From positions 194 to 64,193 of the forward strand of contig JAWKQQ010000006.1 of assembly GCA_041390065.1 (NCBI GenBank): DNA of 64,000 bases, written 5' to 3'. The number at the start of each line of letters is the position of its first letter. The first letter of the stretch is position 1. Below, piece by piece: positions 56,679 through 63,314 of the stretch. The translations under genes were made by a program, and so were the position numbers. The notes beneath the pieces are model-generated. The model did no database searches and had not been told where the DNA came from. It saw only the letters and a list, made by a program, of their open reading frames with translations. Source of the stretch: Candidatus Krumholzibacteriia bacterium. Its GTDB lineage: Bacteria > Krumholzibacteriota > Krumholzibacteriia > LZORAL124-64-63.

Positions 56679-56796
56679 GTCGCCTCCGCAAGATCGGCGG
56701 CCGCCCTGGGGCGACCGCCGGTGCCGGATCGGGTGTTCCCGAAAGATGGTGTGTGGGAGGGCGGAGGGAAAGGCGCTACTTGGAAAGACCGACCGT

Positions 56797-57640
56797 CTGG
56801 ATTCCGTCTATCAGTCCAGGATGTTCCGCAACCGTAACCTGACGCCGATCACCATGCCCGACATCGACCAGGAGGCTGTCAGACACCTTATCCGGTCTCG
56901 ACTCTCGCTGCGCCGCCAGATCACCCCCAGAAAGTACCGCATCTTGGGGATTCTGCGCACCACAGACTACCGGTTCGCCAGCCGCAAGACATACTGGACC
57001 AAGACCCGTCGGACTTGGCTCGCCAGACTGCGCCGCGAGATGACCGGACCGATGCCCATCGTGCCGGCCAGTAAGCTGGAGATGCGCGATTATCTTGATA
57101 CTAGCCAGCGGTCCATGGATGCTCGCACCGCGGACGTTGCCCAGCGACATCCCTGGCGAACGCCGGTCGAGGCATCGTGCTGCTTCCGGGGCATCAAGAC
57201 CGTGACGGCGACAACCACCCAGAGCGAGGTCGATGATATCGCGGGATTCCGGTCGCCCCGGCAGATCTTGGGTCACGCCGGGTTGGTCCCCAACGAGCGC
57301 CGTAGCGGAAGCAAGCAGCAGCGAGGACCGACTGCCAGAAAACTGGCAATTGAATCCTGTGCCGCGCACCCATCAAGAACGCGTGGTACGGCAGCAAACC
57401 CGCCTGCTCCACGCTTATCCTCGCAAGACGCCGCATGGGGTAGGACCCTGCTATCGTCGGCATCGTATTCAAGATTAAGCATCACCTACGTTGCCGGAAT
57501 CTCCGCCTGGCCAGGACCATGTATACCGACAATGCAGTCACCGAAGTTGCCAGAGAACTCGTTGGTATCGTCTGGCCCATGCCGTGGAAGGTCGACCGCC
57601 ACTCACTTGGTCAACAGAGTGCGAAGGAAAAAGACGGCCA
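56797..57640 (+). pseudogene. IS110-family transposase remnant (5'-truncated, frameshifted)
   Basis: The middle and C-terminal regions are recognisable across frames: PDIDQEAVRHLIRSRLSL..., GIKTVTATTTQSEVDDIAGFRSPRQILGHAGLVPNERRSGSK (Transposase_20-type helix-hairpin-helix region), then DNAVTEVARELVGIVWPM in another frame. No DEDD N-terminal domain; kbl ends at 56678. Confidence 0.6.
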
Positions 57641-57869
57641 GGAGAAAATCCGTGTCTCATGTTCGCGACGGGCCTCGGCTCGATTCGCGTTATCTGAGGG
57701 AGACAGCCCCAGACGGACGGCATCATGTGAGCAGACGAACGCGCGGATATCAGATTGACCCTCTGTCGACCGCGCTTCTTCCCTCCGATCATCGCATGCG
57801 AAATAGCCCCGACCGCAAGCGACCGGGGCCCAGGGATCGGTCTGCGCCTGCTCGTCTAGCCGCTCCATG

Positions 57870-60347
57870 TCACTTGGCGAGCGCAACCTTACCGACGGCA
57901 ACTCCTTGTGGCGTCGTTATCCGGTAGAAGTATACCCCTGACGCCACACGTCGACCACTGTCGTCCGTGCCGTTCCAGACCACTGCATTTGGGCCGGCCT
58001 CTAGCCGCGTATCCCGAACGAGCTGCCGGACCAGGCGACCCCGTGCGTCAAATACCGCAACCCACGTCAGGCCGGCCTCCGCCATCTGGAACCTGATCTC
58101 GGTTCTGGGATTAAAGGGATTCGGGCGAGCCGATGCCACCAGGGCTCTGACCGCCGAGGGCGGTTCGACCGACACCGGGATCGGTTGCTCCCGATAGCCC
58201 CAGATGAGCGCCTCGTCGAACCGGCAACTTGTGACCTCGCCCCACGTGGCGAGTCCGAACTTGGTGAATCCGCGATCTGCAGCCGGTCCCTGCAGGGCGA
58301 AGGTCGCTAGTGTGATCCCGTCTACCATGACGTCGAAGTCCGTCTCGCGCACCGCAAGCTCCAGCCGGTACCACTGCGTGCTCGTGTTGGCGAAAATAAC
58401 CGAGTGGTAGGACTCCCCATCGTGGACCCAGATGTCCTGGTACGAGCCACTGCGCAGATCGGCGTGGATGAAACCGTCGGCGTTCTTGAGGGTAATGTAG
58501 ACGTCGGTTCCGGCGGCCCGGTAAACGTCGACGGCCGCACGCACGATGTCGGCCTCACCGGCGGCGAAAAGGATCTCGCCTTGCGAGTTGCCTTCCAGAT
58601 ACCCGTCGTGCTCCGACCACATCCCGCTCTCCGGATTCCAGGGCGAGAGTTGGTTATCCTGGAAGTTGTCGACATGCAAGACGTTGTCGTGCCTCGTACC
58701 CATGGCGAAGGCATTGTCGAAGCGATTCTCGGCGTAATCACCCCACAGACCTAGCCCGAACTCTTTAAAACTGCTGGTTGCCGCTTCGCCACGTCGCGGG
58801 AAGGTCGCGAGGATCACGTCGTCGACGACCACGTCGTAGGCCGCGTCATGGACGGCGAGCGCCAACCGGTACCAGTGTTGATTCTCGTTGGCGAACGGGA
58901 TCGAATGGTAGTCGAGTCCATCGAAGGTCCAGATATCCTGGTAGCTGCCGCCGCGTAGGTTGGCATGGATGAACGTATGGTCGTTCCGCAGGATGACATA
59001 GACATCGGTTCCGCTCTCGCGATAGACGCTCGCACCGGCCCTGGTAATGGTCCAGCCCAGCGACGAGGTGAGCAACTCGCCGCGATCGAGACCTTCCAGG
59101 TATCCATCGTGTTCCGACCAGATGCCGCCGTCCTGCTGCCAGCGTGTCAGTTGGCCGTCCTCGAACTGGTCGGCGGCAAGAGTAAGGCCGGTGCTGAAGC
59201 CATCCACGGTCGCGTTGTCGAACGTGTTCTCCGCGTAGTTCCCCCACAGGCCGAGTCCGAACTGATCAAAGCCGTGCCTGGCCGCATCGCCGCCGAGCGG
59301 AAAGGTCTCCAGCACCGCTCCGTCCACGATCACGTCAAAATCGACGTCGTGAACGGCAAGCTCTAGTCGGTACCAGGTCTGATTCGCGTTGGGGAATGGG
59401 ATCGAATGGTCCCCCTCGCCATCGTGCACCCAGATATCCTGGTAGCTGCCGCCGCGGAGATTGGCGTGGATAAGAGTCGTGGCGTTTCTCAAGATGATGT
59501 ACACGTCCGTGCCGCTCGTGCGATAGACGTCGGCCGCGGCCCCCGTTATCTCCCAGCCGAGGTTGCCCGTGATCAGTTCGCCCAAGCCTTCGCCGTCGAG
59601 CCGCCCACCATGTTCCGACCACGCTCCGCGGTCGACGTTCCAGCCGACGATCTCGGCATCACCGAAGTCGTCGTGGAACAAGGTGGAAGGCGTTCCCAGC
59701 CCCGCGATGGCCACGTTGTCGAAAGAATCGTCGATCGTCCCGTCGTCGGCACCCCACAACCCGAGCCCACACCTGAAGAAGCCACCTTCGGCGGCGCCTC
59801 CACGGAGCGTGAACGTGGCCAGGACGGTACCGTCGGCAATCACGTCGAAGGAATTTTCGTGGACGACGAGTTCCAGCCGATACCACTGCTGGTCGAGGTT
59901 GGCGAACGGTACGGAATGACTATCCACGCCGTCCGAGACCCAGATGTCCTGATACGATCCGCCACGGAGATTGGCGTGGATGTAGGAGGTTGCGTTCTTG
60001 AGGATGAGGTAGACGTCGGTTCCGACAGACCGGTAGACGTCGGCCGACACGCGGGTGACGTCCCAGTCGGGATCTCCGATGATCGCCTCGCCCCGCTCGG
60101 TACCCCGCAGGACTCCGTCGTGCTCGGACCACGTGCCGCCGGTAGTCTCCCAACGTTCGAAGATGTTGTCGGAAAAATCATCGGTGTAGAGAGTCGACTG
60201 AGCCCAGGCACCGGCGCCCAACACCAGGGATAGGACCAGGACGAAACCGCGCAGCCACGTCGCCCCGTTCCGACAGGAGCGCGACCGGGAATCGGCCAGG
60301 GACGCTTGTGCCTTCGCGGCGGCAGAGATAGCAGTTCTGGTGGGCAT
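57870..60347 (-). CDS. Secreted protein with four ~160-aa lectin/glucanase-like (LamG/DUF1080-like) repeats and a FlgD-Ig/T9SS-type C-terminal domain
   Basis: Start taken at MPTRTAIS (comp 60345-60347); signal LVLSLVLGAGAWAQ. Four repeats each carry W.EH.G.L.G, GTDVY[ILV].L[KR]N, IHA[ND]LR[GS]GSYQDIW, WYRL.LAV and GLG.WG. C-terminus PNPFNPRTEIRF...GVYFYRITT...VALAK. Confidence 0.75.
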   Translation of the reverse strand: MPTRTAISAAAKAQASLADSRSRSCRNGATWLRGFVLVLSLVLGAGAWAQSTLYTDDFSDNIFERWETTGGTWSEHDGVLRGTERGEAIIGDPDWDVTRVSADVYRSVGTDVYLILKNATSYIHANLRGGSYQDIWVSDGVDSHSVPFANLDQQWYRLELVVHENSFDVIADGTVLATFTLRGGAAEGGFFRCGLGLWGADDGTIDDSFDNVAIAGLGTPSTLFHDDFGDAEIVGWNVDRGAWSEHGGRLDGEGLGELITGNLGWEITGAAADVYRTSGTDVYIILRNATTLIHANLRGGSYQDIWVHDGEGDHSIPFPNANQTWYRLELAVHDVDFDVIVDGAVLETFPLGGDAARHGFDQFGLGLWGNYAENTFDNATVDGFSTGLTLAADQFEDGQLTRWQQDGGIWSEHDGYLEGLDRGELLTSSLGWTITRAGASVYRESGTDVYVILRNDHTFIHANLRGGSYQDIWTFDGLDYHSIPFANENQHWYRLALAVHDAAYDVVVDDVILATFPRRGEAATSSFKEFGLGLWGDYAENRFDNAFAMGTRHDNVLHVDNFQDNQLSPWNPESGMWSEHDGYLEGNSQGEILFAAGEADIVRAAVDVYRAAGTDVYITLKNADGFIHADLRSGSYQDIWVHDGESYHSVIFANTSTQWYRLELAVRETDFDVMVDGITLATFALQGPAADRGFTKFGLATWGEVTSCRFDEALIWGYREQPIPVSVEPPSAVRALVASARPNPFNPRTEIRFQMAEAGLTWVAVFDARGRLVRQLVRDTRLEAGPNAVVWNGTDDSGRRVASGVYFYRITTPQGVAVGKVALAK

Positions 60348-60618
60348 TTCATCGCTTCCTCTCGCTGGATACCGCGCGCCGGATACATGGATTCGCACCC
60401 GGGATGGGCCAACAGTCCGGCGTCTCAGCCTAGAGTGCTCGGGGCTCATAACGCCAACAAGAGCAAGCAGTTGAATCGTCTGGAAATCTCTTGAAACGTT
60501 CCATGGCGACCATTTAGGATGGCCGCAGCTACGATCGATGCGTTTTCATCGCCGGTGACGCAACTGCAGATCGGTCAACCCGCGTTCGTGGCAGGCACGA
60601 AGGATAATTCGGCTGACT

Positions 60619-61953
60619 ATGTGTCCTCGTCCGCGCAATATCGATATCGATCCTGGCTTTGCTGGGCGCCTGATCGACCTTCGGGAGAAACGACGTCTTT
60701 CAAAGGCCGACCTCGCAGACCGTGCCGGCCTATCCTACCGGACCGTCCTCGACCTCGAGAGCGGGCAGCGCAGGCGAGCCCAGGAGCGAACTCTCATGCT
60801 CCTCGCGAAGGCTCTCGATGTCCCCTTCGACGCTGTGATTGGTCGAGATTCTCCGGCCGCTCTGAATGGAGGGACTTCGGAAGAGCCCGACCCAGGAGAT
60901 GAGCCGGTTTCCCTCAAGGATTCGGAGCAGCCGCTCACCCGGCGATGGCCATGGCTGATCGCGGCGGGATTTCTTGCCGTTGTTGTTGGGATGTCTCTAT
61001 GGCATTTCGGCAGTACCCACGCGGCATGGACCGTAGATCAAAGCGTCTTGACTATGCGGGATGGGCTATTCGGATTGAAGATTTGGTCGCTCGATTCCCG
61101 TCCAAACTTCTTGCGCTGCAGCGAGTCGCCGTGGTCTGACGAGATCCTGCTCGCGAGCACGAGCGCAACCACGACAGAAGGCGGCTGGTTCCGGGCGCTG
61201 GACAGAAAATCTGGTAGAGTCCTTTGGGAAGTGCGCCCCGACATCGACGCGGTCGCCAGGGCATTTGGGGAGGAGATCGCTCGCTCGGCCGGGTACTACT
61301 GTCTTGGCGGTACGCCGGTCGACTTCGATGGCGACGGGGATCCCGAGGTCGTCGTCCGGTTCTTCCATGGGATAGATTATCCAGTTTGCCTGTGCACAGT
61401 TGATCGAGACGGAAACCTGCTAGCCCAGTATACGCACAAAGGGCAGATTTATAGTATCCTGGCGTTCGATCTCGATGGCGATGGCAAGGAAGAAGCCATT
61501 GCCAGCGGCACTAACAATTCGAAAGCATATCAAGGCGCTACCGTTCTTCTCCTGGACGCGATCCACCGAAGTGGTGCTTCAGTCGATTCCCTAACGGATG
61601 CCTGGAGTCATGAGCCAGATGACGTCGTCGTCCGCATCGTCTTCCCGCATTTCCCGGAACCCTATCGGACTCTCCTAGGCGTCGAACGCCTCTGTGCAAG
61701 GAATCTCCAGATCTTCCACGGCCCCGACCACGACTTCCAACTTTCAGTAGACATCATGGCGGGAACGCAACCTGTCGTGATCGGCTGGCTGGACGCCAGG
61801 CTCCGCCCGCAGGGTTGCGAGATCCACGACGGGTTCCTCGAGACCATGCGAGCGTCCTGGCCCGACTCGCTGCGGGGAACGGGGCCGGCCGATTCTGCTT
61901 GGCGAGAACGCTGGCTGGCGTCCTGTTACCGGTTTGGCTCTAGTACGAACTGA
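60619..61953 (+). CDS. Membrane-tethered XRE-family HTH regulator with extracytoplasmic FG-GAP/beta-propeller-like domain
   Basis: HTH_3-like LIDLREKRRLSKADLADRAGLSYRTVLDLESGQRR...LLAKALDV. Single TM WPWLIAAGFLAVVVGMSLW. The C-terminal ~300 aa carry DFDGDGDPEVVV and FDLDGDGKEEAIASG calcium/FG-GAP-like motifs. Confidence 0.7.
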   Translation: MCPRPRNIDIDPGFAGRLIDLREKRRLSKADLADRAGLSYRTVLDLESGQRRRAQERTLMLLAKALDVPFDAVIGRDSPAALNGGTSEEPDPGDEPVSLKDSEQPLTRRWPWLIAAGFLAVVVGMSLWHFGSTHAAWTVDQSVLTMRDGLFGLKIWSLDSRPNFLRCSESPWSDEILLASTSATTTEGGWFRALDRKSGRVLWEVRPDIDAVARAFGEEIARSAGYYCLGGTPVDFDGDGDPEVVVRFFHGIDYPVCLCTVDRDGNLLAQYTHKGQIYSILAFDLDGDGKEEAIASGTNNSKAYQGATVLLLDAIHRSGASVDSLTDAWSHEPDDVVVRIVFPHFPEPYRTLLGVERLCARNLQIFHGPDHDFQLSVDIMAGTQPVVIGWLDARLRPQGCEIHDGFLETMRASWPDSLRGTGPADSAWRERWLASCYRFGSSTN

Positions 61954-62990
61954 GGCGGGTGCGCATTACCGTGGCCAGATCAGGTCGCTTCCCGTGGGCC
62001 CTTGGACGTCTCGTGCCTTCCTGAACCAACCTTGTCTCCAGGAAGCTCGGGTTGTAGAGAATCCGAAACCAGTTGGTAACGCATTCTCCATTCGGCATCT
62101 CGCTGCTGAAATCCGGGTTCCCATTGGAGGACCAATAATCGCCGCCAACCCCAGACGCATACTGGATCGCTGCGATCTGCCCGTGAAGAGTCCTCCACCT
62201 CCAGGAGGATCTCGTCGACGAGCACCGAATTGGCAGGCCCCGACCATGACCGGGGCCTGCATACCCTCCATGGATCCGTCTCTACCCATGCTTCCGCGCA
62301 ACCTCATCGATGAACGTCGCCAGAGCCTCCGCCCCCGCCACGGGCATGGTGTTCTTTACACGCTCGCCCCGGCATCTGCCAACCGAATGGCGCCCCTGCA
62401 GGCCGTCCGAAAGCTCGGCCGTTGCCTCGGCGACGTACTGCTTCACTAGATCCTCCGAGGGAAGGCGCCACGTCACCTTCATCTAGCTGCGGCAGTGCCC
62501 GACCACCGAGCAGTGGCAGACGCCGCCATGCTCGTTGAAACCTACCAGCACGAGCTTGGACGCCCTGACGCGGAACAAGGGTGGCGTGTTGCCGAGTGAG
62601 TCCCGTGGCGAGTGGGTATTCTAGCCCAGGTAGGCCGGCCAGACGTCTGGGCACGACTGGAGCTGGTTGTCTCTCAGGAACAAGGACACGCTCGCCGGAC
62701 GCGGGTTCTTCCGGGCGCCCGCGTAGGTCACGCCGGCCTACTCGAGTGGCAGTTCCCGCCCAAGGAAGTCGCTACTCATGCCGCAGCCGATGGGCACATC
62801 TACGTTGGGCCACTCCTGCCAATGCAGGCCGCCGATGGTCTCGTAGTTGGCGAGGGGCAGGAGAACTCCACAAACACGATCTTCGCGGTCAACTCGCTGC
62901 GGTTCATGGGGATCGTGGGTGAATCGGGTCCCAGGGCGAGGCGTGGAGGCTCGTGGCCGAGATGGCCAGGAGAACCAGCAGGAAACGCAT
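61940..62990 (-). pseudogene. Decayed or unusually coded secreted-protein gene(s); one minus-strand frame interrupted only by TAG
   Basis: The ATG at comp(62988-62990) opens MRFLLVLLAISATSLHA (signal-like) but stops after 28 codons. After about two frame changes, a coding-like frame runs to 61940 with in-frame TAGs at comp 62738-40, 62621-23, 62483-85 and 62282-84. ORF 62282..62482 (MKVTWRLPSEDLV...) is one piece. No family recognised. Confidence 0.3.
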
Positions 62991-63253
62991 GAATGTTGCG
63001 GAAATGGAGCAAGTCGGACGACGCACGACAGCCCTCCCCCAGGCTGAAGATCGTGTCAGGCCGGTAAGATGAGAGCGCCTGGCCTCAATGGAGCCAATCC
63101 TACCACTTTAAGATTAGGGGGGGGCAAGTAAAGAGTTCCGAAATTCCAGCGAAGCAGGCCGTGGCCCGAGGATTCGCGGCAGTTCCAGGCGGGTCGAGGG
63201 CGTCTCGCCGGAGTATGAGCCACCGGGCCGATCTCGGATCGCCCGACAACGAC

Positions 63254-63289
63254 GAGACCGACCATCACGCTTTCGCGATGGCCGGTCTC
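63254..63289 (-). terminator. Hairpin after fba
   Basis: Minus strand: GAGACCGGCCATCGCG-AAAG-CGTGATGGTCGGTCTC (16-bp stem with two G-U pairs), about 25 nt after the fba stop. Weak U-tract. Confidence 0.45.
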
Positions 63290-63314
63290 GTTTCCTTCCT
63301 GCCAGTCTCCAGTG

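Follow-up and report, generated by a model that had tools for sequence, protein, structure and literature searches.

Here we describe a gene of Candidatus Krumholzibacteriia bacterium (assembly GCA_041390065.1) located at positions 60619-61953 of a 64,000-nucleotide stretch of contig JAWKQQ010000006.1 (positions 194 to 64,193 of the forward strand; hereafter the window). The gene probably codes for a one-component, single-pass transmembrane transcription regulator (TTR) through which a cue from outside the cell controls the adjacent gene of a secreted lectin-repeat protein. The product of 444 amino acids (aa) consists of a helix-turn-helix (HTH) domain of the XRE type, a linker, a transmembrane (TM) helix and a large ectodomain. 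Sequence comparisons and structure models show its domain make-up, the conservation of its family, the reuse of its ectodomain, its gene neighbours and the island origin of the gene pair, whereas its topology, its binding to DNA, the identity of its operator, the ligand and the direction of regulation are inferred. The control of the lectin gene would be direct, and an array of phased repeats between the two genes is the candidate operator.

In the proposed mechanism, the HTH would reside in the cytoplasm, tethered through a flexible linker of ~35 aa to the TM helix, and the C-terminal ~310 aa with their calcium-type loops would form a propeller-like sensor in the periplasm or at the cell surface. 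The most plausible cue from outside is a glycan or some other signal of a surface or substrate, and it would alter the oligomeric state or the stability of the protein. This would change the occupancy by the HTH of DNA near its own gene and would control the adjacent lectin-repeat gene, whose product carries a sorting tail; the regulator probably controls its own promoter as well.

An earlier reading of the sequence alone, made without database searches (the sequence-only reading), had described an XRE HTH, a single TM helix and an ectodomain of ~300 aa with FG-GAP-type motifs, and the profile searches and models bear out all three. In Pfam, HTH_3 (PF01381) matched aa 20-71 with an E-value of 2.2e-10 (40.8 bits vs a cut-off of 23), and HTH_31 (31.3 bits vs 27) and HTH_26 matched as well; in NCBIfam the HTH matches were below threshold only. 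Comparison of an HTH profile with the PDB returned solved DNA-binding XRE proteins, namely 7t5u, 6jq1, C.AhdI, DdrO, 434 repressor/Cro and SinR, with E-values from 1e-9 to 5e-6. An AlphaFold2 (AF2) model of the whole regulator, built from a 12-sequence alignment, had a predicted local distance difference test score (pLDDT) of 87.7. It comprises a five-helix HTH (aa 14-24, 29-36, 40-47, 56-65 and 70-74), a linker predicted to be disordered at aa 78-108 (pLDDT <50), a helix at aa 111-133, an all-beta part at aa 136-402 and two C-terminal helices. Conservation within the family is highest in the HTH, where R41 and T42 of the recognition helix are near-invariant, and the linker is poorly conserved (column conservation 0.12). 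The sole strongly hydrophobic stretch of the protein is WPWLIAAGFLAVVVGMSLW, centred on aa 113-131, with a Kyte-Doolittle (KD) value of 1.86 over 19 aa. In 12 of 12 aligned relatives, a TM segment occupies the same alignment position (KD 1.9-3.0); the segment is not conserved in sequence, and K and R are richer on its N-terminal side. The position is kept in the canonical family members too, 100 of 101 of which have a segment with a KD value of at least 1.6.

The ectodomain contains two FG-GAP repeats above the Pfam cut-off and two DxDxDGxxE loops, DFDGDGDPE and DLDGDGKEE. FG-GAP_3 matched aa 235-293 (E-value 3.1e-7, 31.3 bits vs a cut-off of 26.9), and FG-GAP matched with 26.0 bits vs 22.1. 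Both loops are conserved across 87 family representatives, and the second is followed by the family signature GTNN...GA....LD..H..GA..D. An AF2 model of the ectodomain alone (pLDDT 84, predicted template modelling score 0.86) is all-beta with ~20-22 strands. The top Foldseek matches in the PDB were all beta-propellers with a probability of 1.0 (WD40, clathrin terminal domain, BtuG, cd1 nitrite reductase and the PL11 lyase YesX), at template modelling scores (TM-scores) of at most 0.46 and root-mean-square deviations of 7-12 Å. A specific structural relative did not emerge from Foldseek with either the whole model or the ectodomain alone. The ectodomain profile matched PDB entries only partially, these being blades of PQQ-dehydrogenase/BamB and FG-GAP proteins; the FG-GAP profiles match two blades only, and the N-terminal blades are weakly like PQQ/BamB. 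In Pfam and NCBIfam, no model covers the ectodomain as a whole. The models thus describe a propeller-like domain without a close solved relative, and we use this label because the TM-scores do not exceed 0.46 and the sequence profile matches are only partial.

A word-based search found nine full-length homologues of the regulator with 41-49% identity and a common N-terminus, and a locus search with a 7-row alignment found two true relatives only, one of them from an uncultured Fibrobacteraceae. A HMMER profile search of 1.84 billion representatives gave 183 clusters at E<1e-30. The order HTH, TM, ectodomain was found in 101 of 150 inspected ectodomain-bearing proteins. The family is patchy within the phylum: 43 of the 208 species genomes, from 20 of the 81 genera, carry 1-5 copies each, often in tandem. 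The home genome (4.23 Mb in 37 contigs, 85% complete) has two more tandem paralogues on contig 21, which are 31-34% identical to the regulator. These lie at 64440-67361 and have a native G+C content at third codon positions (GC3) of 0.93-0.95; a gene for a lipoprotein-like protein of 413 aa, with no Pfam match, starts 3 nt after them.

The TM helix and ectodomain also occur as a unit on other proteins. This unit is fused to a Hanks-type Pkinase domain in seven proteins, to a zf-HC2 anti-sigma domain in two, to HATPase_c in one and to an HTH with an array of TPR repeats in one. The ectodomain is accordingly taken to be a shuffled extracytoplasmic sensor module, because the same unit is joined to kinase, anti-sigma and histidine-kinase ATPase domains, and these fusions lend support to the suggestion of the sequence-only reading that it senses an extracellular ligand. 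An orientation with the N-terminus inside and the C-terminus outside is supported, since all N-terminal fusion partners are cytoplasmic signalling domains. The HATPase_c relative, P0075 (an open reading frame (ORF) of 1159 aa), has FG-GAP/PQQ-like repeats at its N-terminus, then HATPase_c, and the TM and ectodomain at its C-terminus. It is an unusual histidine-kinase-like layout with propeller-type domains at both ends.

The fusions to zf-HC2 bear on a different mode of action, to which we give only a small chance. Here the regulator would be a membrane precursor subject to regulated proteolysis, its membrane form would not bind DNA, and a signal at the ectodomain would set off cleavage at site 1 and site 2, which would free the HTH to act as an ordinary soluble XRE regulator or to be destroyed. 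Anti-sigma factors of the zf-HC2 class, on which the same ectodomain is found, typically signal by regulated intramembrane proteolysis, and proteases would have access to the long disordered linker. Among membrane regulators, TcpP is a documented case of regulated proteolysis (references in PMC10269533). However, the ectodomain is found on Ser/Thr kinases too, which signal without release, and no protease gene is conserved beside family members. The regulator itself has no zf-HC2 match, and its NCBIfam anti-sigma match has an E-value of 0.05 and 13.6 bits vs a cut-off of 100. No sequence feature tells proteolysis from action in the tethered state.

The probable target of the tethered regulator is the lectin-repeat gene. 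Its product has a signal peptide, four lectin/ConA-like repeats of ~168 aa and a C-terminal sorting tail of the FlgD_ig/type IX secretion system (T9SS) type (TIGR04183, 26.2 bits vs a cut-off of 23; FlgD_ig, 28.1 vs 27). The two genes are divergent and their starts are 271 bp apart if the lectin start is at 60347, in agreement with the ~270 bp given by the sequence-only reading, or 169 bp apart with the longest ORF (start at 60449). Among 5.8 billion proteins, only two homologues of the lectin body were found (P0162 and P0163), with 45-47% identity and three repeats instead of four. The sequence-only reading had made its case depend on the pair being conserved in at least one other genome, and both homologues do adjoin family regulators. 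In these loci (L037 and L039), the lectin gene lies directly downstream of, and on the same strand as, a gene for a full-length family member of 435 or 442 aa that is 40% identical to our regulator, with a spacer of 143 bp. A housekeeping gene of L037/L039 is 90-92% identical to its counterpart in another genus of the same family, compared with only 66% for the copy of the home genome. As judged from these contigs, the regulator/lectin pair occurs in two genera and two orientations, divergent here and tandem in L037/L039. The lectin body was found in none of the 207 other genomes of the phylum, where only its C-terminal tail of ~100 aa is widespread, and the lectin repeat was found neither at other family loci nor elsewhere in the home genome. 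In L037 (941-9887) and L039 (571-7807), the pair has as neighbours a TonB-dependent receptor gene and the genes of one or two further tail-bearing proteins with unassigned bodies, an arrangement that recalls a nutrient-acquisition locus.

The whole family is enriched beside genes for tail-sorted secreted proteins. The neighbours were counted at 52 loci with crude GC3-based gene calls and a hidden Markov model of the tail built from the home genome. Tail-bearing genes made up 17 of 96 immediate neighbours of regulators vs 10 of 270 genes at least three positions away (Fisher p 3e-5), and 13 of 42 regulator clusters had a tail-bearing neighbour vs a genome background of 10.8% (p 3e-4); both p-values are approximate, because the loci are related to one another and the gene caller is simple. 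Ten of the tail-bearing neighbours were confirmed by Pfam, and their bodies include a PETase-like hydrolase, LVIVD, CBM53, sortilin-like and FG-GAP domains. That the ligand is a glycan is a guess, made because the cargo includes lectin, carbohydrate-binding and hydrolase proteins and because the ectodomain is weakly like the propellers of PL11 lyases. The tail of the FlgD_ig/T9SS type is present on ~170 of the 3,099 called ORFs (5.5%) of the home genome, and genomes of relatives have 55-315 first-look candidates each, which amounts to a very large tail-sorted secretome.

The candidate operator was recognised by repeat scans and by comparison with the counterpart loci. On the lectin strand of the window the array reads CGTTTC aaga GATTTC caga CGATTC, followed by TTGC. 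In L037/L039, the spacer between regulator and lectin gene contains four CCGTTTC direct repeats at an exact 10-bp spacing, with a fifth copy nearer the lectin start. A phased array is thus present between the two genes in three of three lectin-linked loci, and that of the window is the weaker. In ~650 kb of family loci, all arrays of at least three phased hexamers lie within 170 bp of a family gene. Arrays with up to three mismatches were found upstream of 12 of 53 family genes vs 11 of 423 others, and always in the GAAACG sense relative to the regulator. In the home genome, the sole array with up to two mismatches, which is also the best, sits between the contig 21 paralogues; with up to three mismatches there are six, three of them intergenic (the contig 21 site, the window site and a site on contig 19). 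On contig 19, the array (329-354) shortly precedes a signal-peptide ORF truncated by the contig end, and beside it is a tail-bearing ORF (471-1595) without start codon or signal peptide, in a lower-GC stretch. A scan of the 208 genomes gave 25 arrays of at least three CGTTTC hexamers at an exact 10-bp spacing vs 2 for the reversed control. Most of the phylum's arrays precede a gene start by 50-300 bp, and several of the genes concerned code for secreted proteins; examples are L082 (G045:C15:9892-9927), L091/L092 and L094. The CGTTTC array is therefore a real, promoter-proximal element across the phylum. It may be bound by the HTH of the regulator, which we put at slightly below an even chance; a different factor that binds direct repeats is the main alternative.

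The array also touches the predicted promoter of the regulator, whose -35 hexamer overlaps the proximal repeat. The upstream regions of the window gene and of its homologue in genome G024 (40% protein identity, similar N-terminus) have in common the block tGAAATCTCTTGAAA(C/G)-N17-TAGGATG in DNA that is otherwise unalignable, and this block coincides with the predicted promoter. Inverted repeats, which the sequence-only reading had proposed to seek in the intergenic region as an operator, were present there as small palindromes; these were rejected, as relatives do not share them.

Several observations weigh against control of the lectin gene by the regulator through this array. The array of the window is degenerate, with three mismatches, and arrays of this quality are no rarer in the home genome than those of permuted hexamers (6 vs a mean of 4.9). 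XRE dimers usually bind inverted and not direct repeats, and when the 250 bp before each of 20 family genes were searched for dyads and k-mers, neither a common dyad nor any inverted repeat above shuffled controls emerged. Only 6 of the 25 phylum arrays adjoin family genes and at least 14 are in genomes without a family member; five such genomes were tested and no similar HTH was found in them. The neighbours of the family vary, among them a Na+/H+ exchanger/PCMT/polysaccharide cluster, a facing FGE-sulfatase lipoprotein gene and others, and a tail-bearing neighbour is missing from about two thirds of the regulator clusters. Synteny between L037 and L039 makes them count as one extra lineage, which leaves the conservation of the pair at two independent lineages. 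In a FastTree phylogeny, their regulators are not sister to the home regulator, though all belong to one 33-member clade, so that the tree does not support the idea that regulator and lectin diverged together. Two wider ideas were rejected as well: an array exclusive to the regulator family, since the phylum-wide scans found arrays in family-less genomes, and a strictly conserved neighbourhood for the whole family, since gene contexts differ among subclades.

The arrays in family-less genomes suggest that another factor may bind the array. It is conceivable, but in our judgement rather unlikely, that the protein is a regulator for which the lectin gene is not a target, the two being co-transferred passengers of a genomic island, and that a phylum-wide factor, for example of the OmpR/PhoB type, binds the array and controls the regulator gene. 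Direct hexamer repeats one helical turn apart (10-11-bp phasing) are the classic site of winged-helix response regulators, and the form of the array fits this, as do the arrays 50-300 bp upstream of unrelated genes in family-less genomes. The pair does sit on an island with a remnant of an insertion sequence (IS). On the other side, it is adjacent in two genera in differing orientations, and the enrichment beside tail-sorted genes concerns the whole family. Moreover, the intergenic arrays of the home genome with up to 2-3 mismatches occur only at family genes and at one secreted-protein gene, too few sites to make up the regulon of a global factor, and just 14 of the 165 genomes without a family member contain an array.

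Direct control by the membrane-tethered regulator could also be part of a broader scheme, which we consider improbable as a whole. In it, the family would form a 'sense and secrete' cassette of regulator, repeat array and cargo gene travelling between lineages as a unit; tethered XRE regulators would align on one DNA face along the phased GAAACG repeats at the membrane, and an outside cue, read by a propeller sensor that would be new and calcium-dependent, would be coupled to transcription of the adjacent secreted-protein gene in a transertion-like manner.

The regulator has a recognised DNA-binding domain and at least one TM region, the two features by which TTRs are defined (PMC10269533). 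The survey of Demey et al. 2023 (PMC10269533) counts 50,302 TTRs, 56% of them single-pass, including 4,523 with HTH_3 and 1,471 with HTH_31; in its supplementary tables of partner domains, PQQ_2 occurs 8 times and Kelch_1 9 times, and FG-GAP is not listed. The class that joins a DNA-binding domain to a TM region is thus already described and common, and the remark of the sequence-only reading that it did not recognise the domain combination as a described class of regulator applies only to the ectodomain family and its combination with FG-GAP, which appear to be undescribed. A literature search found no published description of this regulator family.

The studied single-pass TTRs ToxR, TcpP and CadC are likewise single chains in which one TM helix links a DNA-binding domain in the cytoplasm to a sensor in the periplasm, and their genes adjoin their targets. 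The sites recognised by ToxR are direct repeats (Goss et al. 2013, as reported in a citing paper), which parallels the candidate phased array. The DNA-binding domain of these proteins is, however, an OmpR-type winged helix (Trans_reg_C), for which the regulator gave no Pfam match at E<=1, whereas here it is an XRE HTH. Their periplasmic domains are small alpha/beta folds, in contrast to the ~310-aa propeller-like domain, and ToxR and TcpP have the partner genes ToxS and TcpH, while none like these is conserved beside the family members.

Extracytoplasmic beta-propellers serve as signal-input modules in PknD of Mycobacterium tuberculosis and in the hybrid two-component sensors of Bacteroides (for example BT4663), the latter binding glycans and controlling loci for secreted and surface proteins of glycan acquisition. 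These propellers are of the NHL or Reg_prop type and unrelated in sequence to the ectodomain, and their output is a kinase or a phosphorelay with AraC, not an XRE HTH. The ectodomain described here is found on Ser/Thr kinases too. BcrR, the bacitracin sensor of Enterococcus faecalis, has four TM helices and no sequence relationship to our regulator beyond the HTH. It also has an XRE-type HTH at the N-terminus, is membrane-bound and lies beside its target operon, but is without an obvious extracellular domain (PMC3968067), whereas the regulator combines a single TM helix with a large ectodomain; BcrR is listed as a characterised TTR (PMC10269533).

A role other than in DNA binding is unlikely, and it is very doubtful that the HTH is a protein-interaction module of the RodZ/MreB kind, or one that sequesters a partner, in a structural or scaffolding component of the envelope, whose gene would stand next to secreted-protein genes because both serve to assemble the surface: RodZ, found among membrane HTH proteins (HTH_25,DUF4115 rows of the PMC10269533 supplement), has the same gross layout of XRE-like HTH, single TM helix and periplasmic part, but the regulator has no Pfam match to HTH_25 or DUF4115 at E<=1, its HTH matches HTH_3/HTH_31 and solved DNA-binding repressors, and its family is patchy, multi-copy, often tandem and here island-borne, which fits accessory regulators and not a conserved single-copy morphogenetic protein.

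Little is understood of how transcription factors act while fixed in the membrane, and almost all those studied belong to the ToxR/CadC type and come from a few pathogens. The family described here brings a different DNA-binding fold and a large, well-modelled, uncatalogued sensor domain. The candidate target and the short candidate DNA site make this regulator of an uncultured organism approachable by reporter and binding assays in E. coli. The family also hints at how individual secreted proteins may be controlled in an uncultured lineage of the FCB group that has ~170 tail-sorted ones per genome. The features of the window are collected in Table 1.

Table 1. Coordinates of the regulator gene, its predicted parts and the surrounding features in the window.
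Feature	Coordinates	Strand	Basis
Regulator gene	60619..61953	+	ORF; Pfam; full-length homologues with common N-terminus; AF2
Cytoplasmic XRE/Cro-C1 HTH domain, aa 14-74	60658..60840	+	HTH_3, PDB profile matches, family conservation
Pro/Glu-rich linker, aa 75-110, RRW at end	60841..60948	+	pLDDT, conservation
Single TM helix, aa 111-133	60949..61017	+	Hydropathy, K/R bias, AF2 helix
Extracytoplasmic all-beta propeller-like predicted sensor domain with two C-terminal helices, aa 134-444	61018..61950	+	AF2, Foldseek, fusions
First DxDxDGxxE loop, DFDGDGDPE, aa 235-243, putative Ca2+ site	61321..61347	+	FG-GAP/FG-GAP_3; conserved as D.dGdg..e
Second DxDxDGxxE loop, DLDGDGKEE, aa 284-292	61468..61494	+	Pfam, family conservation
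Predicted sigma-70-like promoter of the regulator, TTGAAA, 18-nt spacer, TAGGAT	60491..60520	+	Consensus scan
Candidate cis-regulatory array, three 10-bp-phased direct repeats	60473..60498	-	Repeat scans, counterpart loci
Divergent secreted lectin-repeat protein gene, probable target	57870..60347	-	Pfam/NCBIfam, repeat alignment, homologue adjacency
Low-GC3 island with the pair, ~6.6 kb, between kbl and fba	56700..63300		GC3, congeneric comparison
Decayed IS110-family transposase remnant, left island edge	56782..57333	+	Transposase_20 E 2.6e-8; DEDD_Tnp_IS110 E 3.8e-5

The GC3 is 0.65 in the regulator gene and 0.76-0.77 in the lectin gene, compared with 0.96-0.98 in the flanking kbl and fba. 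In three congeneric genomes (G001, G003 and G006), the gap between kbl and fba is 28-115 bp and the island is not there. We take the 6.6-kb segment to be an insertion bearing the regulator/lectin pair, because of its low GC3, the IS110 remnant and the closeness of kbl and fba in the congeneric genomes. Rfam and tRNA scans of 50-64 kb of the window gave no match. Downstream of the regulator, a protein-like frame on the minus strand (61940-62992) has TAG codons, four of them internal, as its sole interruptions and has no Pfam match; it is probably a decayed gene of the island.

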